A stretch of 64,000 nt of DNA from a bacterium. GTDB lineage: Bacteria; Patescibacteriota; Minisyncoccia; UBA6257; GWB1-50-10. Where the stretch lies: the NCBI GenBank assembly GCA_021791395.1, contig JAJYWR010000013.1:21384-85383 (forward strand), read 5' to 3'. Below, piece by piece: positions 35,120 to 61,511 of the stretch (positions are counted from its first letter, which is position 1; each line of letters starts with the position of its first letter). The position numbers and the translations under genes were made by a program. The notes beneath the pieces are model-generated. The model was given only the letters and a program-made list of their open reading frames with translations. It was not told the origin of the DNA and did not search any database.

Positions 35120-36834
35120 GAACCAAGATTCTTTAAAGACTCCTTGAGTGACTCACGGAGCGATTCGACATCATGATTTCCCTCTTGGGGTCTCTTCGCC
35201 GATTTTGTTTCTTCCTTCAGGTCCGCGAGCGAAATGGTTCCGGTATCTGGGGGTGCTTCCGAGACTTCATCTCCACCCACGATGGTTTGTTTCCTGGTAT
35301 TCACGGGTTTCTGCTGCGGCGGCTGCCGTCTGAAATTCTTCAAAAAGGGGCGTCTTCGCTCGCCGTAACCGCTCCGGCCTGAATGGCTCGGCGCACTCGG
35401 CGCGATCGATCCTCCTTTTTGACTTTCTTGAAATTCTATTCCGAGCTTCGCAAGATCAGAAAATCTTGAGGCGGTTTCTCTTTCTTCATATCGATGTTCA
35501 AACTTCCGTTCCGCCGTCCCCTCTTCCTTCGGGGACATAACACCGCTCCATCGGTTGATTTCTTCCTCCACAGCCCACCGCGGCCGTGCGTAGATTCTCC
35601 GCGAGGTTTCGATGATTTTCTCGGCAATGGCCGGCGATGATTCCAAATTGAACGGCGGGAGCGTCGTCGCCGAAAACGGGCGGGATGTCACGCCGTCAAC
35701 TAGGAGCTTCAAATAAACGTGATAGTTCGGCAAATTTACGAGGTCTTGCGCCATAAACTCGGGCTCGAATTCCTTTTCCAAAAATTCCGCGTCGGCTGCT
35801 CCGACCCGGAACGAGACCATGGTGCCGACGTTGCCAAACACGGCATCGCGGACTTTCGTTGAAACATCCGTCACAAGCTGCCCCACATACTGATGTGCAA
35901 GAATCAAGTCGAGGCGGTATTTTCGCGCCTCGGACAAGATGTTTGCAAACGAGTCGGTGGCAAAATTCTGGAACTCGTCGACATAGAGATAAAAATCGAC
36001 GCGCTCGTCCTCTGGAATTCTTACACGCTCCATCGCGGCGAGTTGCATCTTCGTGATGAGCATAGACCCGAGGAGCGCTGAGTTATCTTCGCCGATTCTT
36101 CCTTTCGATACATTCACAAGGAAAATTTTCCCCGTGTTCATGATATTGAAGATGTCGATCGTGCTCTTTGATTGGCCAACGATGTTCCGAACGAGGGCCG
36201 TTGAAAGAAATTGGCCAACTTTGTTTTGAATCGGGGCGATGGCTTCGTTCCGGAACTGATCGCGCCACTCCTCAAACTCATTCACCCAAAACGCCTTGAC
36301 CACCGGATCTTTGATATTGTCGACGATTTTCTGCCGATATTCCTTGTCAACCAAAATACGCGTAATACCAAGGAGTGTCGTACCGGGCGTGTCGAGGAGC
36401 GCCAAGATTGCGTTATTTAAAATATATTCCATCCTCGCCGACCAAACATTTGACCAAATCTTCGTGAAGATACCCATAAGCCCCGAAGCAACCAAGTGTT
36501 TGTACTTCGGATCGGGTAATTCCAAAACGTTGAACCCGATGTGGGAATCGGCATCGGCCGGATTGAAATAAATGACATTGCTCAACCGCTCCTCGGGAAT
36601 TTTCTCGAGGAGTCCTTCGACGAGTTCGCCGTGGGGATCGACGACGCACAACCCTTCACCGTTTGCAATGTCCTGCACAATCAAGTTGTTGAGCATCGCC
36701 GTCTTTCCGGTACCAGTCTTTCCGATGACATACATGTGCTGGCGGCGATCGCGCCGCTTAATGCCAAAAAGCCGGTTCGAGTTCCGGAAATCAACCCTGC
36801 CGAAATAAGCCACATCTTTGTCGTTCTCGGCCAT
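35116..36834 (-). CDS. VirD4/TraD-like coupling-protein-family ATPase (T4SS DNA-binding-domain protein)
   Basis: Walker A GKTGTGKT, Walker B LYVDEFQNFAT, and ARKYRLDLILAHQY. Disordered basic C-terminus. Confidence 0.65.
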   Translation of the reverse strand: MAENDKDVAYFGRVDFRNSNRLFGIKRRDRRQHMYVIGKTGTGKTAMLNNLIVQDIANGEGLCVVDPHGELVEGLLEKIPEERLSNVIYFNPADADSHIGFNVLELPDPKYKHLVASGLMGIFTKIWSNVWSARMEYILNNAILALLDTPGTTLLGITRILVDKEYRQKIVDNIKDPVVKAFWVNEFEEWRDQFRNEAIAPIQNKVGQFLSTALVRNIVGQSKSTIDIFNIMNTGKIFLVNVSKGRIGEDNSALLGSMLITKMQLAAMERVRIPEDERVDFYLYVDEFQNFATDSFANILSEARKYRLDLILAHQYVGQLVTDVSTKVRDAVFGNVGTMVSFRVGAADAEFLEKEFEPEFMAQDLVNLPNYHVYLKLLVDGVTSRPFSATTLPPFNLESSPAIAEKIIETSRRIYARPRWAVEEEINRWSGVMSPKEEGTAERKFEHRYEERETASRFSDLAKLGIEFQESQKGGSIAPSAPSHSGRSGYGERRRPFLKNFRRQPPQQKPVNTRKQTIVGGDEVSEAPPDTGTISLADLKEETKSAKRPQEGNHDVESLRESLKESLKNLGS

Positions 36835-42084: not shown

Positions 42085-43827
42085 TCACGCCACTTCCTTT
42101 TGGTAGCACTCCTCGCAGTAGACGATTTCCGGTCGATCCGGGGCAAATGCCGTCTCGAACTCATTCGAACATCTTTCCCCCCCGTGGAAGTGATTTTTCT
42201 TGTCGCACATGCAACTGCGACGCCAAAGCCGGAGAGGCGTTCCCTGCTTCAGGCGCCCGTAATGCCGGCAGTTCGGGCAAAGACGCGGCAGCGGCAAACC
42301 TATCCTTCTCAAAAACTGCAATTCCGGAGCGATGATCCTGAACACGCCCGTGCACTGCTCACCGCATTTCCCTCCGTGAGGGCATTCAATGGTTTGATTC
42401 AAAATATCGTCTTTCACATCCTTGATGTCATCGGGCAATTCGTCCGCTTTCACCGAAATCGCATAATCCTTCGCCGTTTCGTTTCTCCACGGATATTTTT
42501 CTTCCACCGCTCGTTCCGCCGTCAGCGGGAAATACTCCTGGGCGATGGTTTCGTTGTACGCGAAGGGTGAAAGTTCGATCGGGAAGAACTCTCCGTATTT
42601 ATAGATCCTGCCCTTCGCGTCCGTATACGGCATATCATTTATATGCTTTTTGATTTTCGGGAGAAGGGCTTCATATTCTTCTTTTGAATACTGCTTATTG
42701 AGGATACAAAGATCCTTCTTCCGCACCCCGACACATCCGAAGAGATTAGATCCTCCCCGGCAGTAATCCGAATACTCTACATTCACAATATTCTCATAGG
42801 TATTGGAAGAGAAAAAATTGCGGGAATCGTGATAAGCAACGTTCACCCCTTCGTAACTCAGTTCCCCACCGTCCCCCGCGCCGTGGAGGTCCATACAGTC
42901 CTTGATCTTCAGCGCCTGCGTGCAATACCGCAGATTTTCACATTCATCGACGTTGAACGATTTGAAAATGTTCTTTGAATTGATGATGTGGTTGCCGCTC
43001 ACGTTCACGACCTTGTTGGTGAACGCGAATCTTTGAATGGAATTTTTTTTCAGGTCGGCGAACTCGATCTTGAGGGATTGGATTGCCCTTGAGCTTCCCA
43101 ATCCCACTTCCGCCATCTTCCTTTCGTACTCCTCCTTGGTCAGCTGTTCGTTCCGAAACACATAAGACCGGCTCCTCAGATTAGACCCCATGAAGCAGCT
43201 CTTGCACCCCGCGCAATTATACAGGAAATAAGAATCCATGCAGTCGCGGCAATTTTGCAGGTAAGCAGAATGCACCGCATGATTAGTATCCATGGTTTCG
43301 TAGCAAAACTCGGAATCGGTAACGACATTCGAATCAAAAACATCGCGATCGTGGAACGCCTTATGGCTATAGGCGATGTTTTCGGAATAGAAGGTCGAGG
43401 GCGCCATGTAAACATCCTTCGAGAGCCACGTGAAATTCGAATACGGCGCATTCTGATTCTGAAGGCTTTCCAGAGCAAGACGGGGAACGTCCGCGAGGAG
43501 TTCCCGGAACTGCTCGAAAAACGGCCTCGAAAAATCGTAGTCGCGGCCGTATGACATGACGTCCCACTTGTCCGAGAACCAGCAGTCATAACAGTAGGCT
43601 TTAAACGGCCGGTCCCCGGAGTACATCGAGATGACGGGCTTGCCGCAAAGATCGCACATATCTTTGTACAAGCTGCGCTCATTTCTAAAGGCCATTCGTC
43701 GCTCGCGCCGGCACTCGGGGCAGAAGGTCGGCGGAGGAACTTTTATTTTTTCGTAAAAACTGAAATCCTCCGGTTCGATCGTGAATTCCTTTTTACAGTT
43801 TTGACAGGTTTTTGTTTCTGAATTCAT
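42085..43827 (-). CDS. Cys-rich ZnR-FY family paralog 1 (unknown function)
   Basis: MNSETKTCQNCKKEFTIEPEDFSFYEKIKVPPPTFCPECR ... LPLPRLCPNCRHYGRL ... IVYCEECYQKEVA. Start at 43827 forms ATGA with the upstream stop. Confidence 0.85.
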   Translation of the reverse strand: MNSETKTCQNCKKEFTIEPEDFSFYEKIKVPPPTFCPECRRERRMAFRNERSLYKDMCDLCGKPVISMYSGDRPFKAYCYDCWFSDKWDVMSYGRDYDFSRPFFEQFRELLADVPRLALESLQNQNAPYSNFTWLSKDVYMAPSTFYSENIAYSHKAFHDRDVFDSNVVTDSEFCYETMDTNHAVHSAYLQNCRDCMDSYFLYNCAGCKSCFMGSNLRSRSYVFRNEQLTKEEYERKMAEVGLGSSRAIQSLKIEFADLKKNSIQRFAFTNKVVNVSGNHIINSKNIFKSFNVDECENLRYCTQALKIKDCMDLHGAGDGGELSYEGVNVAYHDSRNFFSSNTYENIVNVEYSDYCRGGSNLFGCVGVRKKDLCILNKQYSKEEYEALLPKIKKHINDMPYTDAKGRIYKYGEFFPIELSPFAYNETIAQEYFPLTAERAVEEKYPWRNETAKDYAISVKADELPDDIKDVKDDILNQTIECPHGGKCGEQCTGVFRIIAPELQFLRRIGLPLPRLCPNCRHYGRLKQGTPLRLWRRSCMCDKKNHFHGGERCSNEFETAFAPDRPEIVYCEECYQKEVA

Positions 43828-45602
43828 ACGACTTCCGCATTGTAGCACTCCTCGCAATATACAATGTCTGGCTTGTTGGGTGCATACGAGGTTTCGAATT
43901 CATTCGGGCAGTGCGCTTTTCCGTGAGCATGAGCGACAGTGTTCCGATAGACACCATCCTCGCTTTTCGCGCCAGCGCATTGGCACTTCCGGCGCCACAA
44001 CTTCAACGGATTCCGCTGCTTCAGGCGTTCGTAGTGCCGGCAATTCGGGCAGAGGCGCGGAAGCGGAAGGTTGAATTTTTTATAGAATTCGAGTTCGTCC
44101 TTCAGTATCTTGAAGGCCTGCGTGCACTGTTCATTACAGGTCTGGCCGTGAGCGCACCCAATAACCTCATTCAAGATATCTCCTGAAATTTCTTTTACAT
44201 TGTCAGGCAAGTCCGCTGCCTTCTTTGTAATGCCATAATTTCTGTTTTCATCATCTCTCCACCGATAGCCGGCGTTCAATGCCTCTTCTTTTACTGTGGG
44301 GAAATACTGTTGTGCGATTGTTTCGTTGTACGCAAAAGGAGAAAGATCCGACGGGAAGAATTCGCCATAGCCGTATATTCTCCCCTTCTGGTCGGTATAG
44401 GGCATATCCTTCATATGCTGGATGATTTTCGGAACCAGGGCTTCATATTCTTCTTTTGAGTATTGTTTGTTCAAGATGCAGTATTCCTTGTTGTGGATAT
44501 GGTTGCACCCGAAGCAGTTATGACACCCCGAAAAAGCATTGATGCAGTAGGTTTGGTTCGAGCCGGTCCACGGCAGATAGCAGAACTTCGCATTATACGC
44601 GGGCGCGCCAGAACCGACCGTTTCGTAGCACAACTCCGATGTGGTGTACGCCGCATATGCATCCATGGTATCCTTCGCTTCATTGCCGTATGAGACATAT
44701 TTGCAGTTTTCACTGGAAGAAACGTCAAAGCAATTCTTACAGTTCTTTGTATTAATTAAGTAATTGCCGGTCGATCCCTCGTGATTAAATCCCTCAACAG
44801 CTTTCTTAAGAGATTTCTCCCTCATTTCTTTAAATTCATTTTTCAACGCCTCGATGTCTTTCTCGCTTCCGAAATCGATGCCATTCATGATTTTCTGGTA
44901 TTCCTCCTTCGAATACTGCTTGTTCCTGACGCAATAATTTTTCCGGACCAGATTGGAGCACATGAAACAGTTCGAGCATCCTCGGCAGTTATAGAGAAAG
45001 GAACTTCCCAGTGAATCTTGGCACTGTTGCGAGAAGAAGAGGCTGTTGCAGTTTTGGCAATCTATTGAATCGAAGCATGATTCACTTTTTAAAACCCGGA
45101 GCCCGTCAACGATCGTCTTGGAGTAATTGACGTAATTGCAGTACATACAGTCTTCATTGCCGATGGATGCAAAAACGAGGTAGCAGTTTTTGTCGCCCGC
45201 AAAATGGTTGCCGTACTCGCTGTTCACGAGATCGTGGGATGCCTGAAGGCCAAGCTTGGGCGCCCGCAACGCAAGTTCCCGATACTGCTCGAAAAACGGC
45301 CTCGAGAAATCATAGTCACGACCCGAGGTAAGCTGATCCCAGTTATCGGCATAAAAGCAGTCGTAGCAATAGACTGCGTAGGGTGCATCGGGGGCGTAGA
45401 TGCTTATCTTGTCCTTCCCGCAGAGATCGCATTTCCGCCGATAAATCGTCCGCTCGTTCCGGAAAGACATCCTCCGGACCATCCGGCAATCCGGGCAGAA
45501 GGTCGGCGGCGGGACTTGGATCTTCTCGTAGAAACTGAAATCATCCGGTTCGATCGTGAATTCCTGATGGCAGTTTTGGCAGGTTTTAACTTCTCGATTC
45601 AT
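43824..45602 (-). CDS. Cys-rich ZnR-FY family paralog 2
   Basis: MNREVKTCQNCHQEFTIEPDDFSFYEKIQVPPPTFCPDCR ... CPNCRHYERLKQRNPLKLWRRKCQC ... VYCEECYNAEVV. ATGA overlaps at both ends. Confidence 0.85.
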   Translation of the reverse strand: MNREVKTCQNCHQEFTIEPDDFSFYEKIQVPPPTFCPDCRMVRRMSFRNERTIYRRKCDLCGKDKISIYAPDAPYAVYCYDCFYADNWDQLTSGRDYDFSRPFFEQYRELALRAPKLGLQASHDLVNSEYGNHFAGDKNCYLVFASIGNEDCMYCNYVNYSKTIVDGLRVLKSESCFDSIDCQNCNSLFFSQQCQDSLGSSFLYNCRGCSNCFMCSNLVRKNYCVRNKQYSKEEYQKIMNGIDFGSEKDIEALKNEFKEMREKSLKKAVEGFNHEGSTGNYLINTKNCKNCFDVSSSENCKYVSYGNEAKDTMDAYAAYTTSELCYETVGSGAPAYNAKFCYLPWTGSNQTYCINAFSGCHNCFGCNHIHNKEYCILNKQYSKEEYEALVPKIIQHMKDMPYTDQKGRIYGYGEFFPSDLSPFAYNETIAQQYFPTVKEEALNAGYRWRDDENRNYGITKKAADLPDNVKEISGDILNEVIGCAHGQTCNEQCTQAFKILKDELEFYKKFNLPLPRLCPNCRHYERLKQRNPLKLWRRKCQCAGAKSEDGVYRNTVAHAHGKAHCPNEFETSYAPNKPDIVYCEECYNAEVV

Positions 45603-47389
45603 ACAACTTCGGCTTGATAACAACTTTCACAGTACACGATTTCCTTTCTCTCGGGCGCATAGGGTGTCTCGAATTCACCTTGACAATGGCTTATGCCATG
45701 ACCGTGCTGCGCCGTGTTTGTGTAAACGCCATTCTCCGATTTGATTCCTCCGCATTGGCACTTCCGATGCCACAGCTTGAGCGGATTCCGCTGCCGCAGG
45801 CGTTCGTAGTGCCGGCAATTCGGGCAAAGTGTCGGGAGCGACAAATTCATCCGCCTATAGAATTGAAGTTCCTGGGGAATGATTTTGAAAGCGATCGTGC
45901 ACTGCTCCTTGCATTTTCCTTCATGGGCGCATCCAATTGTTTCTTTCATGATTGAATCATCGATGTCTTTTATGCCATCAGGCAGATCGGATGATTTTTT
46001 GGTGATCTGATAATTCTTGCCTTCCGGTTCTTTCCACCGATATCCCCGGGAAACCGCACCTTCCTTTGTTAGGGAAAAATATTCCTCGGCAATCGTTTCG
46101 TTATACGCGAAGGGAGATAAATCCAGAGGAAAGAATTCACCGTAGCCGTACGTCCTCCCTTGTTGATCGACGTACGGCATATCCTTCATGTGCTGGATGA
46201 CTTGAGGGACCAATTTTTCGTATTCTTCTCTTGTATATTGCTTGTTTAAGACGCAATATTGCTTGCCCCGCAAGCCGTAGCAACCGAAGAGATTTTGCGA
46301 TGACGTGCAATTATAGGAATAGAAAATGTCGGAACTTCCTTTAATGAACTGGCTGCACACGTACCGGGAGTTTTCCGTAGATTCGAAACCGAGGGAAAGA
46401 GATTCGTAGAGCAATTCTCCTCTGCTCAAGCCGTAGATATCGTACGAATCTTTGAGACCGAGGCCGATATAATGCGAAAAACGCGAATTTTCATAACCGT
46501 CTCCGGAAAAATCAAAACAATCGTGACAGTTCTTGGAATTTTTGAGGTTGTCGCCCGTGCAGTTGACCGATTTTAATATCTCGGCATATTTATGGAGCGA
46601 ATTTTTCTTCAAATCACTGAACTTCGTTTTCCACTCCTCGATTTGTGTACGATTTCCTAGATCAATTTTCGCAATTTTCTCTTGATACTGCTCTTTCGTG
46701 CACGGTTGGTTCAGAAAGTAGTGTTGCTTGTTCCGCAGATTGACGGACCCAAAACAGTTTTGGCAACCCTTGCAGTTGTAAAGGAACGAAGAATCGGAAC
46801 AACCATCACAGTACTGACAAAACTTCAAACCGTAAGAATTTTCGCACTGCACCGACTCGTAGCACGCTTCCGTTTTGGTATTTGTATAGAGATCCATCCC
46901 GTCCTTCGACATGTAAATCCGGTTCGAGTAGAGGATATCCTCACTTTCCCGTCCTCCCATCAGAAGGTAGCAATTTTTCGCGCCGGCCATGTAGTTGCAG
47001 TAATCGGCATTGACGGCAGTTGTATTGAAGAGCGCCATTGCGGGAACCCGCTTCAGGAGAAATTCCGAAAACTGAGAGAAGAAGGACTTGTTGAAATCAT
47101 AGGAACGCCCGAACATTTCGGGGTTCCACCTATCGCTCCACCAACACTCTTGGCAGTAAACGGGAAAGTCGACACCACTCGGATAAATGGAAATAATCGA
47201 TTTACTGCATAAATCGCACGTGCGGCGGTACAACGTCCGCTCGTTCCGCCACACCATCTTGCGCATCAGACGGCAATCAGGACACCAGGTCGGCGGCGGA
47301 ACCCGCATCTTTTCGTAAAAAGAAAAATCGTCGGGTTCAATAGTGAACTCCTTCTTGCAGTTTTGGCAGGTTTTAACTTCTCGATTCAT
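45599..47389 (-). CDS. Cys-rich ZnR-FY family paralog 3
   Basis: Same architecture as the other paralogs. ATGA overlaps at both ends. Confidence 0.85.
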   Translation of the reverse strand: MNREVKTCQNCKKEFTIEPDDFSFYEKMRVPPPTWCPDCRLMRKMVWRNERTLYRRTCDLCSKSIISIYPSGVDFPVYCQECWWSDRWNPEMFGRSYDFNKSFFSQFSEFLLKRVPAMALFNTTAVNADYCNYMAGAKNCYLLMGGRESEDILYSNRIYMSKDGMDLYTNTKTEACYESVQCENSYGLKFCQYCDGCSDSSFLYNCKGCQNCFGSVNLRNKQHYFLNQPCTKEQYQEKIAKIDLGNRTQIEEWKTKFSDLKKNSLHKYAEILKSVNCTGDNLKNSKNCHDCFDFSGDGYENSRFSHYIGLGLKDSYDIYGLSRGELLYESLSLGFESTENSRYVCSQFIKGSSDIFYSYNCTSSQNLFGCYGLRGKQYCVLNKQYTREEYEKLVPQVIQHMKDMPYVDQQGRTYGYGEFFPLDLSPFAYNETIAEEYFSLTKEGAVSRGYRWKEPEGKNYQITKKSSDLPDGIKDIDDSIMKETIGCAHEGKCKEQCTIAFKIIPQELQFYRRMNLSLPTLCPNCRHYERLRQRNPLKLWHRKCQCGGIKSENGVYTNTAQHGHGISHCQGEFETPYAPERKEIVYCESCYQAEVV

Positions 47390-49131
47390 GCTATCTCACT
47401 ATTATAACAGCTCTCGCAGTACACGATTTCCGGGCGGTCGGGGGCATAGCTCGTTTCGAATTCGACGGTGCAATGCGAGTCGCCGTGAAAATGATTTTTC
47501 CGATCGCACATGCACGACCTATGCCACAGCTTCATGGGGTTCCTTTTCTTCAATCTTTCGTAATGCCGGCAGTTCGGACATAACCGAGGCAGAGGCAGAT
47601 TCATTCGCTTATAGAATTGAAGTTCCTGAGGAACAATTTTAAAGGCACCGACACACTGATGGAGACATCTCCCCGCGTGTTCGCACCCAACAACCTCGTT
47701 CACGATGGAATCGGTGACATCCTTGATGTTGTCCGGAAGATCTTCAGATCGAATGGTCACCTGGTATTCTTTAATATTCGGATCTTTCCACCGGTAACCC
47801 CGGCCCATCGTCTCGTCTTTCGTGAGCGGAAAATATTCTTGTGCGATGGTTTCATTGTAGGCGAAGGGGCTGAGTTCCGGCGGAAAGAATTCGCCGTAGC
47901 CGTACGTTCTTCCCCTTTGATCGACATAGGGCATGGTGTTCATCTGATCAATGATCCGTGGGGTTAGCTCCTCGTATTCTTCCTTCGAGTATTGCTTGTT
48001 CAGAATGCAGTATTGTTTGTTTCGGAGGCCGATGCAACCGAAGCAATCGTTGCAACCATGGCAATTATAACTATAGAGAACATTCTTCCCGCCCCAAACG
48101 ACAATGCCGTTGATCAACCGGGAAGCGTTCAACCCGGAATCCATTACCTCATAGCTTAAATCAACGTGTTCACCCGGTCCGTAGCTGTCATAAATGTCAC
48201 TCATGATGACGCCTCCATTCGTGGTATATTTGCAATCTTTCGCGTTATCAAAAAGGTCGAAGCAGGATTTGCAGTTTTTTACGTTCGTCAGATTGTCGCC
48301 CGTCGAATCCGGTGCGTTCACCAAAAAGGCGAACTTACGGATCGTTTGCAATTTGAGGTCGTTAAAGTCTCGTTTGATCCGCTTGAGCCCCTCATGGCTC
48401 CCCAGGTCGAATTCTTTCAGTTTTTGGACATATTCCTCGGGAGAGCATTGCTCGTTCCAAATGCAGTATGACTTGTTCCTTAAATTGGAGCACCCAAAGC
48501 AGTTCGAGCATCCCTTGCAGTTGTAGAGGAAGTACGAATCATTGCAGGAGTCAGAATTTTCTGAAAAGAACATACGGTATAATTTCATGCCGGTAATGAC
48601 CTCATAGCTCAGTTCGACATACGATGATGATAAAACATCGAGCGAATCTTTCGACATCCACGTCTTGTTCGCGTACATCACCCGCTCATTCATCCAAGCG
48701 CCGAATACCAGATAGCAATCCTTGGAACGTCCGCCATGGTTGGTGTATTCGCAGTTCTCGGACTGGGCATTGAAGATCGCCGGCATTGGCGCGCGTTCGA
48801 GGAGCGACCGGAATTGGCTGAAAAACGTTTCCTTGAAGTCGTAGGGGCGGCCGGAAGCGAGGGGGTCCCACTGGTCGCTCCACCAGACGTCGCGATCGTA
48901 CACGGTTACCTTACTATCCGGCGCGAAAATTGAAAGAACCCGCTTTCCCGTCAAATCACAGTTTCTCTGGTACAGCGAACGTTCATTCCGCCACGTCATT
49001 TTGCGCATTAAACGGCAATCAGGACACCAGGTCGGCGGCGGGACTTGGATGCGCTCATAGAAATCAAAATCCTCCGGTTCGATCGTGAATTCCTTCTTGC
49101 AGTTTTGACAGGTTTTTGTTTCTGAATTCAT
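47386..49131 (-). CDS. Cys-rich ZnR-FY family paralog 4
   Basis: Same architecture. The second ribbon is degenerate (CDLTGK...VYDRDVW). ATGA overlaps at both ends. Confidence 0.85.
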   Translation of the reverse strand: MNSETKTCQNCKKEFTIEPEDFDFYERIQVPPPTWCPDCRLMRKMTWRNERSLYQRNCDLTGKRVLSIFAPDSKVTVYDRDVWWSDQWDPLASGRPYDFKETFFSQFRSLLERAPMPAIFNAQSENCEYTNHGGRSKDCYLVFGAWMNERVMYANKTWMSKDSLDVLSSSYVELSYEVITGMKLYRMFFSENSDSCNDSYFLYNCKGCSNCFGCSNLRNKSYCIWNEQCSPEEYVQKLKEFDLGSHEGLKRIKRDFNDLKLQTIRKFAFLVNAPDSTGDNLTNVKNCKSCFDLFDNAKDCKYTTNGGVIMSDIYDSYGPGEHVDLSYEVMDSGLNASRLINGIVVWGGKNVLYSYNCHGCNDCFGCIGLRNKQYCILNKQYSKEEYEELTPRIIDQMNTMPYVDQRGRTYGYGEFFPPELSPFAYNETIAQEYFPLTKDETMGRGYRWKDPNIKEYQVTIRSEDLPDNIKDVTDSIVNEVVGCEHAGRCLHQCVGAFKIVPQELQFYKRMNLPLPRLCPNCRHYERLKKRNPMKLWHRSCMCDRKNHFHGDSHCTVEFETSYAPDRPEIVYCESCYNSEIA

Positions 49132-50836
49132 ACGACTTCCGCATTATAACATTGTTCGCAATAGACAATTTCCTTCCGATCCGGGGCATAGCTCGTCTCG
49201 AATTCGTTCGGGCACCGACCCGTGTGGCCATGGCTTATCGCCTGTGGTGAGCTTTTCAAACCACACATGCATTGCCGATGCCAGAGTTTAACGGGGTTTT
49301 TGAACTTCAAGCGATCCTTGAGCCGGCAGAAAAAACATTTCCGCGGGACTGGAATGCCGTTCCGTTTATAGAACGCGAGTTCTTCAGCGAGAATCTTATA
49401 ATTCCTGCCGCAGTCGGCGCAAGCGAGGATTTCATTCACGATCGAATTCGGAACATCCCCAATCGCATCAGGAATTTCTCGCATCGTTTCCTTCCCCGTC
49501 GTGAATTGGAGTTTATCCTGCCATCGATACCCCTTCGCGAGTGCCTCTTCTTTCGTCATAGGGTAGTTATCTTCCGCCAGTGTTTCGTTGTATCCGAAGG
49601 TCGAGAGCGATACCGGGAAGAATTCGCCCCATTCTCCCCCTTTTTCATTCCGTCCACGATCTCTTCCTTGAGCTTTTCATACGACTCCTTGGTGTACTGT
49701 TTGTTCAAGATGCAGTATTGGGCGCTTTTCAAACCGACACAGCCGAATAGTTCCTCCGACGATTGGCAGCTGTCTGAATACAGAACATTCCGATCTTTAT
49801 GGCAGTAAGACGTGAAATGCGTGCCATACGAATTGTCGGGATTGATACCTTCGTAGCAAAGCTCCTGCTCGCCCCCGCTCGCGCAGTCATAGCTGTCCTT
49901 AATCGTGTCACCGTTCTCAAAAAACTTAGAATCTTCAACTCTCACCGCATTCCAGCAATTCAAGGCGTTTTTTGAATTGACGAGGTAATTCCCCGCGCAG
50001 TTGACGCAATTCATGAAGTTGGCCGGTCTCCGCGGGAATTTCAGAATGAAATCGAAAAATTCCTTTTTGACCCGCTCCGACCTGCTCCAGGTATCGATCC
50101 GGTATTCACCGAGGATTTTCTCATATTCTTCCTTTGTATACTGCTGATTTTTCACGCAGTACTTTTTGTGACGGAGGCCGATCGACATGAAACAATCGCT
50201 GCAATCCCGGCAATCGTAACAGAAAGCACAGTTGATGAGCGATTCTGAGTTAAAAACGAATCGGCAGGAGTTGCTCTCTCCTACATAAATCGATTCATAG
50301 ATATTCCGGGCATTTGAGAAAACCGTCATTACATCCACCATATCCTTCGCGTTCACCATATGGTAGCAATACATGCAATTTTCCACTTTCCACGAGTTCA
50401 TGGTGAGGTAACAGTTTTTGCCGAGAGCGAAGTAGTTCGTATATTCGCATCCGACGCTTGCGATATTGTTGTCGTTCAAAATCGCGAGAGCCGGTACGAT
50501 ATCGAGAAGTTCTCGATATTGCTCGAAGAAAGACCGTGATAGATCGTAATCACGACCGTATTTCTTCGGATCCCAGCCGTCGCCCCACCAGCATTTGTTG
50601 CAATAGATCGGGACAGGCTTCTCCGGCGAGTAGATGGAGATAATTTTCCGGCTGCAGAGCTCGCACTCACGATTGTAGAAGTTGTAATCATTCCGCCAGG
50701 CGAGCCGACGTTGCCTCCGGCAGTCGGGACACAAAATCGGCGCTGGCACCCCGATACGGTTATAGAACAAAGAGTCGTCCCCCTCGACCGTGAAATCTGA
50801 TTTACAATTTACGCATTTTTTTATTTCCTTCTTCAT
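49128..50836 (-). pseudogene. Cys-rich ZnR-FY family paralog 5, interrupted by a -1 frame change (ORFs 49556-50836 and 49128-49559)
   Basis: The N-terminal 426-aa ORF loses family similarity after ...IVDGMKK. The -1 frame continues GGEWGEFFPVSLSTFGYNETLAEDNYPMTKEEALAKGYRW... to the normal family C-terminus. The switch point is the run AAAAAGGGGG (49636-49645). Confidence 0.75.
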
Positions 50837-52611
50837 GCTATTTCACTGTTATAACACTCTTCGCAGTACACAATGTCTGGCTTGTTGGGTGCATACGATG
50901 TTTCGAATTCATTGGGGCATTTCCCCGCTCCGTGGGAATGAGCGGCAGTGTTTTGATAGACACCATCCTCGCTTTTCGCGCCGGAACACTGGCATTTCCG
51001 GTGCCAGAGCTTGAACGGATTCCGCTGCCGCAGGCGCTCGTAATGCCGGCAGTTCGGGCAGAGGCGCGGCAGGGTAAACCCCATTTTTTTGTAGAACTGA
51101 AATTCTTGAGGGATTATCTTGAAGCCAACCGTACATCGCTCATTGCATTTTCCCTGATGAGCGCATCCAATAATTTCACTCACTATCGAATCCTCAGCAA
51201 CCGCTATTTCTGGGATTTTATCCGGTTGCAACGTAATTTTATAATTCCTTTCCTCGAGAGTTCTCCAACCGTAGTTAGCTATTCTTGCTCCATCCTCATC
51301 GAGAGGAAAGTATTCTTGCGCAACCGACTCATTGTAGGCGAAGGGAGAAATTTCTATTGGAAAGAATTCGCCGTATCGGTAAACCCGGCCTCCTTTATCG
51401 ACATACGGCACTTCGTTCATTTGTTTTATGATTTTCGAAACAAATGATCGATATTCTTCCTTGGAATATTGTTTGTTCAGGATGCAATATTGTTTATTCC
51501 TAAGCCCAACACAACCAAAACAATTTGATGAATTCCTCAGAAAATAAGAATAACGAAGAGAATAGCCGTCCCAAACATTCCCGCAAAAAGCAACATCGTG
51601 CATATTACTCCCCGCGTCCATAATATCGTAACTATTCTCCAAATTTACTCCTACGGCATAAGCATCATAGATATTCCTCATATCGGTAACTCCGTAAATG
51701 ACAAATTTGGAATCTTCCAACGGCCCTTCTATATCGAAGCAATTTTTAGAGTTTTTTACTTCTTTCAGGTAGTCCCCCGTCGAATTGACGACATGGCGTG
51801 AATTGGAGAATTTTCTGGGTTTTTGAACCAAGAGCTTCGAAAATTCCTCTTCAAAATTTTGTCGCCCTTCAGGGGTCTTTAATTCTTCGAGTTCATTCTG
51901 GTAATCTTCTTCTGATCGCTCTTGGTTCAAAACATAGTACTTTGCGTTCCTCAAGCCAACGCACCCGATGCAATTCCGCACGTTCCGGCAATCATAGCAA
52001 TACCTCGAATCAATGCAGGAATCAGAAAGAGTCAGGTATTCGCTATTGTAGCAACCTTCACAATCATTCAACTCGCGGCAACCCTCGTTTTTGCGAGAGC
52101 CGAGCATATCAAAACAATTTTTATTTTGAATAGAATGGTAGAGATAAGCCGAATCTTCATTCATATCACTCGCAAAGTTCAGATAACAATTTTTAGACTG
52201 GTAAGTAAAATTGCAGTAGTCGCTGTTTACGGCATCAATGTTGATAAGTGCGGGCGTCGGTACTTTATAAAGAAGTTCTTTCCACTGTTCAAAAAACGGT
52301 TTGCCAAAATCGTATTCTTGTCCGTATTGCATTGGATCCCATTCATCGCTCCACCAGTATTGATGACAATAAACTTCGATTGGCGATTCTTGAGAGTACA
52401 TCGAAATGAGGTTTTCGCTGTGTCCAGGTGCATCGCATTTCCTTTTATGCAAACCCCTCTCGTTCCGCCAAGATAGATGGCGGCACAGCCTGCACTCGGG
52501 GCAGAACGTCGGCGGCGGGACCTGGATTTTCTCATAGAAAGCAAAATCCTCCGGTTCGATCGTGAACTCTCGTTTGCAGTTTTGGCAGATTCTCGTTTCA
52601 GTTTTGGTCAT
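50833..52611 (-). CDS. Cys-rich ZnR-FY family paralog 6 (first gene of the six-gene chain)
   Basis: MTKTETRICQNCKREFTIEPEDFAFYEKIQVPPPTFCPECR ... CPNCRHYERLRQRNPFKLWHRKCQC ... VYCEECYNSEIA. Confidence 0.85.
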   Translation of the reverse strand: MTKTETRICQNCKREFTIEPEDFAFYEKIQVPPPTFCPECRLCRHLSWRNERGLHKRKCDAPGHSENLISMYSQESPIEVYCHQYWWSDEWDPMQYGQEYDFGKPFFEQWKELLYKVPTPALINIDAVNSDYCNFTYQSKNCYLNFASDMNEDSAYLYHSIQNKNCFDMLGSRKNEGCRELNDCEGCYNSEYLTLSDSCIDSRYCYDCRNVRNCIGCVGLRNAKYYVLNQERSEEDYQNELEELKTPEGRQNFEEEFSKLLVQKPRKFSNSRHVVNSTGDYLKEVKNSKNCFDIEGPLEDSKFVIYGVTDMRNIYDAYAVGVNLENSYDIMDAGSNMHDVAFCGNVWDGYSLRYSYFLRNSSNCFGCVGLRNKQYCILNKQYSKEEYRSFVSKIIKQMNEVPYVDKGGRVYRYGEFFPIEISPFAYNESVAQEYFPLDEDGARIANYGWRTLEERNYKITLQPDKIPEIAVAEDSIVSEIIGCAHQGKCNERCTVGFKIIPQEFQFYKKMGFTLPRLCPNCRHYERLRQRNPFKLWHRKCQCSGAKSEDGVYQNTAAHSHGAGKCPNEFETSYAPNKPDIVYCEECYNSEIA

Positions 52612-52629
52612 TTGATCATTAGTATATTG

Positions 52630-52646: not shown

Positions 52647-52692
52647 ATTATAAAGCATTCATGCCGTGAGCGTTGTGGTACACTGAATAGTA

Positions 52693-54284: not shown

Positions 54285-55985
54285 TTATAAAACCAAGGAT
54301 TGATAACACTTATTGCAGTATACAACCGGCGCTTCTTTCTCGGTATATCGCGCAACGAACCGGATGCCGCAGTTCGAGCACTTGCGAGGGTACTGCGCCA
54401 TATTCCCGAGCCAAAGCTTGAATTTTTCGTTGATGCGGCAGAAGGGACACTCGCGCGGGAGCGGCAAGTTCATCCGGCGGAGGAATGACAATTCCATCGG
54501 GATCAACTTGAATCCGCGCCCGCATTTTGCGCAGCCGATAACCTCACTCAAGATGCTGTCTTTCGCGTCCTTGATATGATCTGGTAAATTCGCCGCTTCA
54601 ATGGTTACCCGGTATTCGCTCTTCGGTGGATCGCGCCAGACATATCCCTCCTGCAAGATTTCTTCTTTTGCGAGTGGTAAGAAGTGATTCGCCTCGGCTT
54701 CATTGTAACCGTTGGGAGAAAGCTCAATGGGGAAAAATTCGCCGTACCGATATTCCTTCCCTTTCTTGTCCCGGTAGACATTCTCGTCCATATCTCTTCT
54801 GATGCGTTCGACGAGCCTTTGATATTCTTCTTTGGAATATTTTTTGTTTAAAACGCAATATTCCCCCTTCTTCATACCAACGCAACCGAAACAATGGGAA
54901 CTGGAAACCAGCGCTTTGCAATATTCCAAATCTTCGCTCTTTAGTATCTCTTGACTGAACTTGATGCCCGAACTTTGATTTCCAACCACCGACGAATCAT
55001 AGGAGAGAGAAAGATTCTCGCCCCAATAGGTTATGTCGTAACTGTCCCATATGCCGTCCGACACCATGCTTACGTACCGGCAATTCTCGCCGTTATTCAC
55101 CTGGAATGAATCTTTGACATTCTTAGAATCGTAGATATGCGCTCCCCAACAGTTGATGTTCCGGTCGCCGAACTCCGCCTTCGGGATCCGAGTGGCCCAA
55201 AACGCCTCTGCTTCCTTGAGCGCTTTCCGATATCCCGCGTACGACCCAAGATCATATTTCGTGATTTCCTTTTGGTACTCCTCTTTCGTATATTGCTTGT
55301 TTTCGATGCAATATTTTTTGTTCTTGACGCTCGCGCACATGAAACAGTCCTGGCAATTCGACGCATCTTTCATGAACGAGCAATTCAAGAGTTCGACGGC
55401 ATAACCCCTCAGCCCGATGCCATGATTGCACCTCCACGCGTGCATCGAATCGTACAACCACTCGGAATTGAGGCAAAGCGTGCAATCCAAGACGGACTTA
55501 TCATGTTCCACGTAAAATCCATATGCGGAATCCTCATCGCAGTTGGCTTGGTACAGGAGGTAGCAATTTTTCAGATTGGCGGCATTGCTCGTGTAGGGCG
55601 AATCCTTCGACGTCGGGATGTCAAGTGAAATTCCCAAAAGTGGCACTTTATGCATCAATTTGTCGAATTGTTCGAGGAACGGCTTCGCCGGATCATATTC
55701 CTTGCCTGTTGCATACTGGTCCCAATTGTCTCCCCACCAGCACTCAGGACAGTAGACGACGTACGGCGCATCCGGTGCGTAAACTGAGATTACGTTCTTT
55801 TTACAAAGATCACATGCCCGTTTATAGAGATTGAATGTATTAAACCACGCAAGCCGCCGCTGGAACCGGCACTCGGGGCAGAAGGTCGGCGGCGGAACCT
55901 GGATTTTCTCATAGAAAGCAAAATCGTCGGGTTCGATCGTGAATTCCTTTTTACAGTTTTGGCAGATTCTTTTTTCTTGATTCAT
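54285..55985 (-). CDS. Cys-rich ZnR-FY family paralog 7 (subtype B C-terminus)
   Basis: MNQEKRICQNCKKEFTIEPDDFAFYEKIQVPPPTFCPECR ... CAKCGRGFKLIPMELSFLRRMNLPLPRECPFCRINEK ... VYCNKCYQSLVL. The ORF-track extension to 56033 is hairpin sequence. Confidence 0.85.
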   Translation of the reverse strand: MNQEKRICQNCKKEFTIEPDDFAFYEKIQVPPPTFCPECRFQRRLAWFNTFNLYKRACDLCKKNVISVYAPDAPYVVYCPECWWGDNWDQYATGKEYDPAKPFLEQFDKLMHKVPLLGISLDIPTSKDSPYTSNAANLKNCYLLYQANCDEDSAYGFYVEHDKSVLDCTLCLNSEWLYDSMHAWRCNHGIGLRGYAVELLNCSFMKDASNCQDCFMCASVKNKKYCIENKQYTKEEYQKEITKYDLGSYAGYRKALKEAEAFWATRIPKAEFGDRNINCWGAHIYDSKNVKDSFQVNNGENCRYVSMVSDGIWDSYDITYWGENLSLSYDSSVVGNQSSGIKFSQEILKSEDLEYCKALVSSSHCFGCVGMKKGEYCVLNKKYSKEEYQRLVERIRRDMDENVYRDKKGKEYRYGEFFPIELSPNGYNEAEANHFLPLAKEEILQEGYVWRDPPKSEYRVTIEAANLPDHIKDAKDSILSEVIGCAKCGRGFKLIPMELSFLRRMNLPLPRECPFCRINEKFKLWLGNMAQYPRKCSNCGIRFVARYTEKEAPVVYCNKCYQSLVL

Positions 55986-55996
55986 GGTTCGTTCGG

Positions 55997-56025
55997 CCTC
56001 CGGGGCGCTTTCAGTGCCCCGGAGG
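55997..56025. repeat. Palindromic hairpin family A copy between paralogs 8 and 7
   Basis: cctccggggcgctttcagtgccccggagg. Part of an 84-nt block (55954-56037) identical to 61432-61515. Confidence 0.85.
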
Positions 56026-56033
56026 AACCTCAC

Positions 56034-57695
56034 TTATAATACTTCTTTTTGGTAGCACTCTTCGCAGACAATTTTTTTATATCCCCACTCCGGCGGATAG
56101 TAGTGGACAATCGGTTTCGAGCAGAAAAAACATATCCCCTCATACGGCGTCGTAACGGTAAGCGGCTTCATGCGTTCCATGTTGCGCTTGTCGGGATGGC
56201 GGCTCGGCAAAGGTATGCCGTGCTCCTTGTAAAACGCAAGCTCTTGGGGCGCTATATTGAACCGCCACTTGGTTTCAGGACAAATGATCGCTTGTTTCGA
56301 AAAATCGTCGCCGACACCGTCAATGACGTCCGGTACCTCGTCACCCGCTATGCCTTCGTATGCCCGATCTTGAATATCTTCCCATATGCCGCCTTTTGCC
56401 TCTATAGATTCGCGCGTCTCGGGAAAATACATTTGCCCGGTCGACAAATTGTACCCGCAGTAGGCCAACGAATACGGGAAAAACGTCCCCCAGGTGCCGT
56501 CGGCGATCATTTGGTCTTTGATTTTTTTCACGAGGTTATCGTACTCGGATTCCGTATATTGTTTGTTCAAGATGCAATATTTCTTTTTCCGCAAGCCGAC
56601 GCAGCCGAAACAGTACTCGCATTCCTCGCAGTACTCGAGGTAGGCGCTGTATCGACAATTGCCGCACCGGGATGTGGCAACGGTTCCGTAGTTGTAGCCG
56701 TCCATCATGCTCAAGGCCGCATTCTCAGCGATGGTGCCTGCCGCATGAACAACCTCACGCTGTTCATAGCCGCGAAGGAGGTAGCAACTGTTCTCGGATT
56801 TCTGAGCAAAGTAGGACTCGCGGCAGTTCTTGCATTCCTCGAGAAAATTCCCCGTTACATTGGCAACCTTGAGATTGCGATCCGCCCGATGAACGGCGTC
56901 GCGGGCGACGATATCGGCAAATTCTTTCTTCAGTTGTTCGACCTCCCGCCTTGAGTTCAAACGATGTCCTTTCATCTTTTCAAAATACTCCTCCTTGGAA
57001 TACTGCTTATTTAAAATGCAATATTGCTTGTTCCTCAAGTTCCAACACATAAAACAGTTTTTCACATTCCGGCAGTCATGGAGGAATATGCCGTCCATGC
57101 TGTCGCGCGCATCGAAGGAGTGCCGGATTTTGTAGGATTTGAAACAGTACGTGCAATCGTACGAACGCTCGACATCGAAGCAGAACGTGAGGTCCGTGGA
57201 GTTTTTGCAATTCACGGTGCGGTAGGCATAGTTCACCTCTTCGCAGTTGAGCATCGAGCGGCAGAGATAACAGTTTTTGCAGCTCCATGCATCATCGCTC
57301 CAATCGCAATTCGTGCTCATGGTTCCCGACCGATGCGGATGCGGCGTTTTTCGCTGGATTTCCGCATACTGCTCAAAGAACGGCCGCGTAGGATCATACT
57401 CTCGGCCGTATGCGAGCGGGTCCCATACGTCGGACATCCATTCATCGTAATCGTAGAGTGGGAACGGCGTGGCCTCCGAAAATGTCGTGATGATAGCTTT
57501 TCCGGAGAGCGCCGATGTTGTTTTCCTGAATTTGCCGAAGACCCAAAAAGCTGTCAGGTTCTTCCAAATGCAAACGTGGCATTCCTGGGGCACCGGGATT
57601 CCCGTTTTTTCGTACAAAACAATGCTGTCCGGCAGAATTGAGGATTCCTTCCCGCAACTCTTGCATTTCCGCACTTCGGATTCCATTACGTTCAT
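56034..57695 (-). CDS. Cys-rich ZnR-FY family paralog 8 (most divergent member)
   Basis: Retains YCILNKQYSKEEY twice, FNIAPQELAFYKEHGIPLP, and the KIVCEECYQKEVL tail. N-terminal ribbons are partly degenerate. An alternative start ATG at 57686 lies 7 nt after TATAAT (57694-57699). Confidence 0.8.
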   Translation of the reverse strand: MNVMESEVRKCKSCGKESSILPDSIVLYEKTGIPVPQECHVCIWKNLTAFWVFGKFRKTTSALSGKAIITTFSEATPFPLYDYDEWMSDVWDPLAYGREYDPTRPFFEQYAEIQRKTPHPHRSGTMSTNCDWSDDAWSCKNCYLCRSMLNCEEVNYAYRTVNCKNSTDLTFCFDVERSYDCTYCFKSYKIRHSFDARDSMDGIFLHDCRNVKNCFMCWNLRNKQYCILNKQYSKEEYFEKMKGHRLNSRREVEQLKKEFADIVARDAVHRADRNLKVANVTGNFLEECKNCRESYFAQKSENSCYLLRGYEQREVVHAAGTIAENAALSMMDGYNYGTVATSRCGNCRYSAYLEYCEECEYCFGCVGLRKKKYCILNKQYTESEYDNLVKKIKDQMIADGTWGTFFPYSLAYCGYNLSTGQMYFPETRESIEAKGGIWEDIQDRAYEGIAGDEVPDVIDGVGDDFSKQAIICPETKWRFNIAPQELAFYKEHGIPLPSRHPDKRNMERMKPLTVTTPYEGICFFCSKPIVHYYPPEWGYKKIVCEECYQKEVL

Positions 57696-61463: not shown

Positions 61464-61474
61464 GGTTCGTTCGG

Positions 61475-61503: not shown

Positions 61504-61511
61504 AACCTCAC

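Follow-up and report, generated by a model that had tools for sequence, protein, structure and literature searches.

Old paralogs chained by ATGA overlaps in a Patescibacteria genome: support for short-tract gene conversion at the gene ends and a plausible case for termination-reinitiation

How can six members of one protein family follow one another with no spacer between them, some of their junctions being identical in DNA, when the bodies of the genes are strongly diverged? The question is raised by the minus strand between positions 42085 and 52611 of a 64,000-nt stretch of an uncultured Patescibacteria (Parcubacteria-type) genome; "the window" below means that whole stretch. We hold it probable that this region is a single operon of six old, diverged paralogs, which would be translated by SD-less reinitiation at ATGA overlaps and whose junctions would undergo short-tract ectopic gene conversion.

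Layout of the array and the protein family

The genes of the sub-array are designated A to F from the upstream end (Table 1), and the window holds ten copies of the family in all, occupying ~17.4 kb or 27% of its length. ATGA, combining a TGA stop with an ATG start, was confirmed at each of the five minus-strand junctions named in an earlier, sequence-only reading of this DNA (43824-43827, 45599-45602, 47386-47389, 49128-49131 and 50833-50836), as it was on the same strand at 37269-37272 and 39294-39297. The frequency of these overlaps in the sub-array appears to be more than chance would give. Among adjacent family genes in other genomes, -4 overlaps were found at just 8 of 71 junctions, and the type of junction does not stay with the gene: in other genomes, relatives of D and I may come with a promoter, with a spacer or with an ATGA overlap, which also speaks for exchange. 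On the 3' side of F, a 27-nt gap is followed by pepA, which has its own TATAGT -10 box.

The same reading described a chain of six paralogs; its overlaps are real, but its fifth gene (B, 49128-50836) is broken, giving seven ORFs and six ATGA sequences. One nucleotide has been deleted from the A5G5 run ATGAAAAAG-GGGGA (49645-49636), relative to the intact ortholog L001_6491 (563 aa, 87% identical), so that the ORF starting at 50836 ends at 49556 and the C-terminal part forms a separate ORF. The same frameshift is present in a second assembly, and G5 was the only homopolymer state seen, in two identical assemblies. B may have been recently inactivated or split by this frameshift. The sixth ATGA (49556-49559) happens to link the two halves and is regarded as fortuitous. 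Since the frameshift stops translation 428 nt before C, a strictly coupled chain would be broken at this point unless the sixth ATGA rescues it, and the stoichiometric co-expression proposed for the array would be complicated by it.

The family is large (more than 5,000 clusters at 50% identity) and unannotated, consists of zinc-ribbon/beta-solenoid proteins of ~590 aa and was found only in Patescibacteria MAGs. Paralog D served as the query of the family search and was the copy modelled structurally; the protein is predicted to be cytoplasmic, with a zinc ribbon at the N-terminus, zinc ribbons at the C-terminus and, between them, a Cys-rich core resembling a beta-solenoid. This ~590-aa architecture with its Cys-rich solenoid core had no match in Pfam, NCBIfam, PDB or PADLOC, and no informative one in PHROG. 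At the N- and C-termini, paired CxxC motifs resemble those of PF13451 (zf_Tbcl), PF23477 (zf_Tbcl_2) and TIGR04272, the reference type being the treble-clef/CxxC-x17-CxxC families; the profile matches there are weak, at 15-17 bits (15.9-17.2) versus curated cut-offs of 24, 27 and 36, and the Cys-rich solenoid core sets the ~590-aa proteins apart from zf_Tbcl-type families. Phage "zinc-ribbon domain" models matched structurally over ~66 residues. At variable positions of the family proteins, alternative states (SETKT, REVKT, QEKRI) are shared by different pairs. The paralogs have 29-54% amino-acid and 43-60% nucleotide identity, their third positions are saturated (0.33-0.45), and 7 of the 10 copies have closer relatives in other genomes than in the window. 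Judged from their sequences, the copies in the window are ancient paralogs.

Table 1. Features of the window discussed in the text (positions of the window; all on the minus strand)
Feature	Position	Strand	Remarks
VirD4/TrwB/TraD-like ATPase	35116..36834	-	without N-terminal membrane anchor
Paralog F	42085..43827	-	580 aa, closes sub-array
E|F junction block	43763..43841	-	tail of E, ATGA, head of F; partner 49067-49145
Paralog E	43824..45602	-	592 aa; start is the ATG of the ATGA overlap, not an upstream TTG
E 3' part	43840..44060	-	85.5% over 221 nt versus A 3' part 50849-51069
Head of E	45570..45602	-	33 nt identical to head of D
Paralog D	45599..47389	-	596 aa; orthologs L004 (80%), L001 (76%)
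Head of D	47357..47389	-	33 nt identical to head of E
Paralog C	47386..49131	-	581 aa; L009 ortholog 81%
B|C junction block	49067..49145	-	partner of 43763-43841
Paralog B	49128..50836	-	frameshift-split: ORFs 49556-50836 (426 aa) and 49128-49559 (143 aa)
Paralog A	50833..52611	-	592 aa, opens sub-array; closest relative in another genome, L040, 61%
-10-like hexamer TATACT	52621..52626	-	9 nt upstream of the ATG of A; putative operon promoter
Paralog G	54285..55985	-	outside sub-array
H|G 84-nt exact block	55954..56037	-	identical to 61432-61515
Paralog H	56034..57695	-	likely start ATG 57686, TATAAT 7 nt upstream
Paralog I	59682..61463	-	outside sub-array
J|I 84-nt exact block	61432..61515	-	partner of 55954-56037
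Paralog J	61512..63218	-	outside sub-array

Start signals and expression of the array

A promoter had been proposed at ~52621-52650. A -10-like TATACT is present there (52626-52621), but a sigma-70 scan found no -35/-10 pair in that region. The hexamer has a leaderless-type placement, 9 nt before A, and the same pattern is seen at 17 other long ORFs; in the window as a whole, 18 of the 38 ATGs that have a -10-like hexamer 5-10 nt upstream start ORFs of at least 100 aa, against a background of 22%, and many starts have such boxes at 6-9 nt. The -10 boxes 6-9 nt before starts, in an SD-poor genome, suggest leaderless mRNAs.

The claim that no convincing SD precedes the internal starts held. Computed with the canonical anti-SD, which was assumed because the 16S 3' end of the organism lies outside the window and which may not be its own, duplex energies were -0.5 to -3.6 kcal/mol for B to E and -6.4 kcal/mol for F, in the latter case ~20 nt upstream, compared with -9.5 kcal/mol for paralogs G and I. 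Most other starts in the window likewise lack an SD. The RNA of the junctions is unstructured (z-scores about -1 to +2), and promoter-like and terminator-like sites inside the array show no excess over shuffles. The internal starts have, then, neither SD nor structure, yet -10-like motifs stand 11 nt upstream of three of them.

Transcription from the -10 box 9 nt upstream of A would probably begin on the ATG itself or immediately ahead of it, and the resulting operon mRNA would be leaderless, the apparent norm in this SD-poor genome; we infer a single transcript. On the downstream cistrons, which have neither SD nor spacer, ribosomes ending at the UGA would most likely restart at the overlapping AUG. 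As the genome is SD-poor and its starts appear to be of the leaderless type, termination-reinitiation at ATGA, served by one upstream promoter, is plausible.

In tested bacteria and archaea, -4 nt overlaps mediate strict coupling, for which an SD is sometimes dispensable and which is abolished by a gap of ~20 nt (PMC6728339, PMC10666635). The -4 overlap is the commonest class in all prokaryotic phyla and is enriched among genes whose products are subunits of heteromeric complexes (Huber et al. 2019, PMC6728339; Huber et al. 2023, PMC10666635). Like the pairs studied in those papers, the array genes are co-directional, with a -4 overlap, the UGA inside AUGA and no spacer, and stop and start overlap in this way at five junctions and once more inside the split B. 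Unlike them, the array joins paralogs of one family rather than different subunits, through five overlaps in a row (six if the split gene is counted), and its genome appears to do without both SD and 5' leaders.

Alternatively, each internal gene may have its own promoter inside the preceding 3' end, where Cys-Tyr-Asn codons form TGTTATAAT, an extended -10; we regard this as unlikely. The transcripts would be near-leaderless, the overlaps would reflect compact packing and the paralogs would be individually expressible, and to these consequences we give the same rather low credence. TGTTATAAT does stand 11 nt before the ATG of both C and D, F is preceded by TGCTACAAT and B by a weaker TATAAC, and the genome sets -10 boxes directly before many ATGs; in other genomes TANNNT was found in 4 of 8 tails preceding ATGA overlaps versus 22 of 150 elsewhere, and the frameshift in B would be harmless if the genes were expressed one by one. 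However, the spacing of 11 nt departs from the 6-9 nt seen where a gene start in the window is clear, E lacks the box and has TATCAA instead, and, given Tyr-Asn, TATAAT/TACAAT is no commoner before overlaps than at terminal genes (15/24), so that the motif may be a by-product of the protein sequence.

Shared DNA at the gene ends

The 46-nt block was found to be exactly identical at 43796-43841 and 49100-49145, as had been reported, and it extends to 79 nt with 2 mismatches; the 33-nt block at the heads of D and E is likewise exact. A second and apparently stronger case of exchange lies outside the sub-array first considered. Here, the H|G and J|I junctions share an 84-nt exact block that runs from the TAA stop of H through a 48-nt spacer, in which a 10-bp GC hairpin sequesters GGAGG, into the head of G, of which it covers 32 nt; the identity begins sharply at the stop codon, and G and I are just 50% identical overall. 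The 221-nt tract common to the 3' parts of E and A contrasts with an overall identity of 57% between these genes and may therefore represent an older conversion tract.

The genes are highly alike in nucleotide sequence only over their first ~120 nt and last ~250 nt, and there the identity is mosaic. In the first 33 nt, D and E show no differences, C and F one, G and I one, and most other pairs 6-11; in the last 21 nt, B and E differ at 1 position and A and C at 2, and in the preceding 60 nt A and E differ at 5 and C and I at 8. The nearest paralog changes along the head, and all gene bodies are less than 75% identical. The tracts (33, 46/79 and 84 nt, and 221 nt at 85.5%) are far above the background of their pairs, which are 50-59% identical overall. 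Tract and body are also discordant in the comparison of B with L001_6491, in which most of the body is 85-100% identical, the first ~110 nt 55-63% and the last ~150 nt 38-73%.

These identities go beyond amino-acid and codon expectation: exact runs of at least 30 nt were found in the heads of 5 of 36 within-window pairs, versus none of 540 between-genome pairs matched for codons or GC, of which 77 were non-orthologous pairs involving closely related genomes and 463 were GC-matched. The frequency of such runs is 0.043% among ~14,000 between-genome pairs, and when all loci are taken together 12 of 198 pairs from the same locus have one. At shared amino acids the fraction of identical codons is 0.66 in within-genome heads, 0.47 in bodies and 0.53 in between-genome heads. 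The lowest p in a per-pair silent-codon run test was 0.0086, which lost significance once 45 pairs were corrected for, and a whole-gene PHI-like test yielded p = 0.17-0.30; such formal recombination tests are low-powered because the sequences are saturated. Over all genomes, head identity is just slightly higher within loci (0.685) than in matched between-genome pairs (0.640), and some of the head conservation is therefore plain constraint. Gene conversion between copies, already suspected in the sequence-only reading, draws support from the end-restricted mosaic identity, the excess over the codon-matched null, the non-coding tract and the decoupling of ends and body relative to orthologs. 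Short-tract conversion is thus supported, and it would be broader than the blocks originally noted.

It is very unlikely that the blocks owe their identity to purifying selection only, acting on the zinc-ribbon N-terminus, the C-terminus and codon or initiation constraints with no exchange of DNA, and this explanation is already largely refuted. The heads are indeed the most conserved part family-wide (between-genome median 62% versus ~50% for bodies), and neither the corrected silent-codon run test nor the PHI-like test was significant. Selection leaves unexplained, however, that pairs differ in the states they share at variable amino acids (SETKT, REVKT, QEKRI), that runs of at least 30 nt are confined to the within-window side of the matched comparison, that the 84-nt block has 48 non-coding nt and a sharp end at the stop codon, and that the ends of B differ from those of an ortholog with a body ~90% identical.

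Recent tandem duplication of a multi-gene segment, with the junction identities as leftovers, is highly improbable. A three-gene duplication would account for the distance of three genes between the B|C and E|F junctions, and between the MFS gene and pepA there are two copies in L001 versus eight in the window; but the supposed duplicates (B-E 43%, C-F 49% and A-D 48% amino-acid identity) are no more alike than other pairs, third positions are saturated, and other genomes contain 80-87% identical orthologs of B, C and D. The segmental duplication that had been offered as an explanation is contradicted also by gene bodies that are 45-60% identical and by most copies being closer to genes of other genomes. 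Finally, the source is a metagenome-assembled contig with repeats of 33-84 nt, at which an assembler could have joined or homogenised paralogs and created false identical junctions or the frameshift. Such an artefact is extremely improbable, as a second assembly (a 76.8-kb contig, named k141) matches the sequence at 100% for 21.8 kb, frameshift included, and 2.9 kb are identical in a JGI contig that comes from another sample record. In addition, a k-mer of 141 is longer than any of these repeats, and related genomes have the same kind of arrays and overlaps.

The identical junction DNA would have arisen by ectopic gene conversion in short tracts, tens to ~200 nt long; its mechanism and direction are what we infer. 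The conserved 5' heads and 3' tails may be the only stretches similar enough to recombine, and conversion would repeatedly copy head, tail or whole-junction modules, the bodies staying diverged, which would explain why the same ATGA architecture is kept at all five junctions. Concerted evolution through ectopic gene conversion is well known among bacterial paralogs, for example tufA/tufB and the rRNA operons. The window resembles the tufA/tufB type in having near-identity tracts in diverged copies, mosaic ancestry and discordance of tract and flank. It differs from both examples in that the tracts are limited to the ends and junctions of very old paralogs (~50%), just 5-15% of each gene is homogenised, and one tract carries a whole intergenic hairpin module.

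VirD4-like ATPase genes and possible roles of the locus

Arrays of this family often adjoin orphan VirD4-like ATPase genes. T4CP-like genes were found in 33 of 83 family loci, and 33 such genes lie at most 600 nt from a family gene, 31 of them on the same strand, which constitutes a conserved genomic linkage; the T4CP-like protein of the window lacks the usual N-terminal membrane anchor. A survey of Patescibacteria counted 5,713 T4CP homologues in 2,918 genomes, just 148 of them near virB4, and considered exaptation for another function possible (PMC12102498). Orphan genes of that kind are carried by the window and by the 33 family loci, whereas the zinc-ribbon family is not mentioned in that paper. 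The linkage between the family and T4CP genes appears to be a new observation.

Neither of the two mechanisms, coupling through ATGA overlaps and conversion between tandem gene copies, is new: both are textbook matter and of little importance on their own, whereas the protein family is uncharacterised. The lineage is typically described as very small-genomed, and 27% of the window is spent on ten copies of this uncharacterised family, which is repeatedly linked to orphan VirD4-like ATPases. The role of these ATPases is left open in the literature (PMC12102498). The locus is also a natural test of how internal cistrons are translated in SD-less, leaderless-type genomes, with the frameshift in B as a natural "premature stop" experiment within the array. 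A bolder and decidedly unlikely view is that heads, tails and junctions are portable recombination modules, with their own translation signals, that reshuffle the paralog bodies, and that together with on/off switching at homopolymers they make this a diversity-generating locus, perhaps for effectors. If this were true, the modules, each bringing its own ATGA overlap or else a spacer whose hairpin sequesters an SD, would let a Patescibacteria-specific family associated with VirD4-like ATPases re-wire its paralog bodies within and between arrays, and the locus would serve the host-dependent lifestyle of these ultra-small bacteria.

Junctions of the paralog array and the reading frame of gene B

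Along the minus strand of the region from A to F, long ORFs lie head to tail, and the sequence-only reading had described them as six chained paralogs. All five 4-mers at the proposed junctions are indeed ATGA, the TGA stop of one gene overlapping the ATG of the next, and the two ATGA overlaps proposed outside the array are also genuine. The two pairs of junction blocks described as identical proved exact, and the 46-nt block lies inside a 79-nt match that has 2 mismatches. These observations are real apart from one overlooked frameshift, in that the fifth gene, B, is not intact: the frame opened at 50836 stops at 49556, leaving the C-terminal third as an ORF of its own (143 aa). Alignment to an intact ortholog of 563 aa from a close relative, L001 (L001_6491, 87% identity over the full length), revealed a 1-nt deletion in a G-run (49636–49640) within ATGAAAAAGGGGGAG (49636–49645). 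A second assembly is 100% identical across 21.8 kb, the break in B included. Programmed frameshifting (-1, at G AAA AAG) was ruled out, since the ortholog reveals a plain 1-nt deletion. A sixth ATGA (49556–49559) joins the two halves of B, with the TGA of the shifted frame overlapping a Met codon already present; under strict coupling the frameshift would interrupt the chain, unless ribosomes that reinitiate at this site rescue it.

Coordinates of features in the window (SD, Shine-Dalgarno; T4CP, type IV coupling protein; percentages for genes are identities to the nearest relative outside the window; hexamers are -10-like, with their distance to the start)
Feature	Position	Strand	Remarks
SAM riboswitch RF00162	4610–4713	-	53 bits; only Rfam family in the window
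Starts with hexamer, without SD (examples)	9494, 17508, 25781, 30903, 36834, 40604, 42057, 52611, 57686	-	
T4CP-like gene	35116–36834		protein without N-terminal membrane anchor
ATGA outside the array	37269, 39294		each between two called genes
Gene F	42085–43827	-	
Gene E	43824–45602	-	
Gene D	45599–47389	-	80%
Gene C	47386–49131	-	81%
Gene B	49128–50836	-	87%
Gene A	50833–52611	-	61%; TATACT, 9 nt
pepA, downstream of F			TATAGT, 7 nt
ATGA within the array	43824, 45599, 47386, 49128, 50833	-	
46-nt block	43796–43841, 49100–49145		
33-nt block	45570–45602, 47357–47389		
Extended -10-like tail motifs TGTTATAAT/TGCTACAAT (examples)	49146–49154, 47404–47412, 43842–43850		
Inverted repeat AAATCCA-TGG-TGGATTT	52646–52630	-	7 bp
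TATAAT upstream of A	52652–52647	-	perfect
102-aa ORF	52693–53001	+	PCHRV motif; PF01035
427-aa ORF	52989–54272	+	
Gene G	54285–55985	-	
Gene H	56034–57695	-	59%; TATAAT, 7 nt
Gene I	59682–61463	-	64%
Gene J	61512–63218	-	59%
48-nt spacer (H|G, J|I)	55986–56033, 61464–61511		
84-nt block (H|G, J|I)	55954–56037, 61432–61515		
Second T4CP-like gene, 3' end	63801–63998		upstream of J

The family commonly forms tandem arrays, with 205 family ORFs in the 85 sources searched (the window together with four near relatives and 80 loci from a genome scan), and adjacent family genes are mostly packed tightly. The 71 junctions from other genomes include 8 overlaps of -4, 2 overlaps of -1 and 13 gaps of +1 to +4 nt. 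Since only 8 of the 71 are -4 overlaps, the ATGA pattern at five of five junctions is unusual within the family. Relatives of one and the same paralog differ in junction type (promoter, spacer or overlap); because the junction type is not tied to the paralog, independent origins of the ATGA junctions are unnecessary, and their uniformity in A–F fits junction modules that either spread by conversion or were inherited and retained. The interval between the MFS gene and pepA holds two copies in L001 and eight in the window, and the B ortholog occupies a different slot in L001, so that array content is fluid.

An identical 48-nt spacer lies at two non-adjacent junctions outside the sub-array (H|G and J|I). 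It is predicted to form a perfect 10-bp GC hairpin, CCTCCGGGGC...GCCCCGGAGG (-27.5 kcal/mol, z = -4.3), whose 3' arm is itself a GGAGG located 10 nt ahead of the ATG. This is the sole strong SD-like motif among the starts checked, and the hairpin would sequester it. Palindromic hairpins are also found between family genes of other genomes, in several spacers of ~40 nt among the 71 junctions.

Histories of the gene ends and gene bodies

In 60-nt windows, identity of at least 85% was restricted to the first ~120 nt of the paralogs, plus the last ~250 nt in A, D and E, with one short internal patch between E and F; gene bodies were below 75% in all cases. The identity of the ends is mosaic, different pairs sharing different segments. 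Over the first 33 nt, D and E show 0 differences, C and F as well as G and I show 1, and most other pairs of these copies 6–11; over the last 21 nt, B and E differ by 1 and A and C by 2, and over the 60 nt preceding these, A and E differ by 5 and C and I by 8. Variable N-terminal residues occur in alternative states common to pairs (MNSETKT, MNREVKT and MNQEKRI).

Formal recombination tests were not significant: the best per-pair value of a silent-codon run permutation test (p = 0.0086 before correction, 45 pairs) did not survive correction, and a PHI-like four-gamete test on whole genes gave p = 0.17–0.30. As both have low power on such saturated sequences, an empirical null was built from 175 family genes of about 80 other genomes, based on the length of the longest exact match within the first 45 codons, and this test did reveal an excess. 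Between genomes the median run was 9 nt and the 99.9th percentile 29 nt, with runs of at least 30 nt in 0.043% of ~14,000 pairs; when restricted to genomes of the same GC content and codon usage, such runs occurred in 0 of 463 pairs (maximum 29), and in 0 of 77 non-orthologous pairs formed with the closest relatives (maximum 23). Within the window they occurred in 5 of 36 pairs, an excess over what amino-acid constraint, the alternative raised in the sequence-only reading, produces between matched genomes. Other genomes contain within-locus head runs of 62, 48, 35 and 32 nt, and overall 12 of 198 within-locus pairs reach at least 30 nt. At shared amino acids, the fraction of identical codons is 0.66 in the heads of within-genome pairs, versus 0.47 in bodies and 0.53 in the heads of between-genome pairs.

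Constraint does not readily account for two more observations. An exact 84-nt block is common to the H|G and J|I junctions; it has a sharp onset at the TAA stop and runs through the 48 nt of non-coding spacer plus 32 nt of coding head. Identity is ~88% for about 100 nt beyond it, and G and I as wholes share only 50% identity. Gene B and its ortholog are 85–100% identical over most of the body but only 55–63% over the first ~110 nt and 38–73% over the last ~150 nt, the flanking housekeeping genes of the two genomes being 74–88% identical. The end-restricted mosaic identity, the excess over the null, the 84-nt block and the discordance of B argue for separate histories of ends and bodies, the pattern that ectopic recombination over short tracts leaves behind. 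Gene conversion between copies, as originally proposed, is supported and reaches beyond A–F to the H|G and J|I junctions, whereas recent segmental duplication is not, since duplicated bodies would be alike and those observed have diverged.

Signals for translation and transcription

If a canonical anti-SD is assumed, the starts of B–F pair with it weakly or at the wrong distance, confirming that internal starts are without an SD; most other genes in the window, gene A included, show the same behaviour. Hexamers resembling a -10 box lie 6–9 nt ahead of many long ORFs, and 18 of the 38 ATGs preceded by such a hexamer begin an ORF of at least 100 aa, against a background of 22%. The combination of a TATAAT-like hexamer at this distance with the absence of an SD at many genes suggests leaderless mRNAs as the rule in the source genome; the literature searched offered nothing specific on leaderless transcripts or SD use in Patescibacteria. 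The promoter proposed at ~52621–52650 derives some support from the hexamer of A, but a sigma-70 -35/-10 scan found nothing there, and together with a terminator scan it gave a site count for the array that was below that of shuffled sequence.

As for the internal starts, ATGA junction RNAs are unstructured by predicted folding. In experiments with E. coli and Haloferax, -4 overlaps lead to strict coupling, the SD is dispensable in some cases, and a gap of ~20 nt abolishes coupling (PMC6728339, PMC10666635). Because of these precedents, termination-reinitiation at ATGA is, by inference, the most plausible mechanism. Alternatively, the codons for a conserved C-terminal Cys-Tyr-Asn could act as an internal extended -10 promoter, as they spell TGTTATAAT or TGCTACAAT at a distance of 11 nt upstream of the C, D and F starts; however, this spacing lies outside the 6–9 nt found at clear starts, and the motif is not more frequent than expected from the amino acids. 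The same tail motif occurs at ATGA junctions in two other genomes (L004 and L040).

Upstream of A, a perfect TATAAT is followed by a 7-bp inverted repeat, which lies between it and the abutting TATACT box of A and could serve as a putative operator. The repeat falls in an 81-nt region common to A and a divergent gene. Two opposite-strand genes lie between H–G and A–F; one encodes a 102-aa protein matching a methylated-DNA-protein-cysteine methyltransferase DNA-binding domain, and the other, a 427-aa ORF, had no match in the libraries searched. Rfam detected no RNA family in or near the array.

The protein family and its genomic link to VirD4-like ATPases

All ten paralogs in the window (A–F, H–G and J–I) are encoded on the minus strand, with mutual identities of 29–54% in amino acids and 43–60% in nucleotides. 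Identity at third positions is 0.33–0.45, and synonymous sites are therefore saturated. Since mutual identity is low, sites are saturated and 7 of the 10 have their nearest relative in another genome, the paralogs are old subfamilies rather than recent duplicates. The family comprises 5,328 clusters at 50% identity (E <= 1e-3), essentially only from Patescibacteria/Parcubacteria-type MAGs, and its named matches are all "hypothetical protein". Matches in Pfam, NCBIfam, PADLOC and PHROGs were all below threshold, to treble-clef zinc ribbons at the N- and C-termini; the curated libraries assigned none of the paralogs to a membrane-protein family, and a PDB sequence profile search gave no match. 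An AlphaFold model of paralog D is confident (pLDDT 83.9, pTM 0.85) and predicts zinc-ribbon-like ends and a repetitive core of short strands. Foldseek searches with the model found nothing at E < 1 in the PDB, only weak resemblances to left-handed beta-helices, and only zinc-ribbon matches of ~66 residues in a viral library. Many Cys/His positions reach 70% conservation or more across the family sequences, seven Cys being invariant, and paralog D contains 36 Cys. A literature search on the family in Parcubacteria/CPR found nothing specific. In L001, the first family gene of an array (4770–6489) apparently has no canonical start upstream of the conserved N-terminal zinc ribbon, its called start being an internal Met at MQVPPPTFCP.

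Among the ORFs flanking the arrays, TrwB/VirD4/TraD-like ATPases are strongly over-represented, and 13–15 of 120 match the corresponding Pfam families. By BLAST, 33 of 83 loci have a T4CP-like gene; 33 such genes are at most 600 nt away from a family gene, 31 on the same strand and several spaced by -4, +1 or +5 nt. ATPase paralogs of ~700 aa and ~490 aa often bracket the array, a pattern that the window loosely matches. The 5,713 VirD4-like homologues that a recent survey reported from 2,918 Patescibacteria genomes include only 148 near virB4; the survey leaves their role open, its text makes no mention of zinc, and no reference to the present family was found in it (PMC12102498). Guilt by association suggests that the family may act with, or be handled by, VirD4-like ATPases. 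ATGA coupling and gene conversion are both well known, and this locus would be a fresh instance of each; more interesting than either mechanism is the uncharacterised, T4CP-linked and highly expanded family itself.
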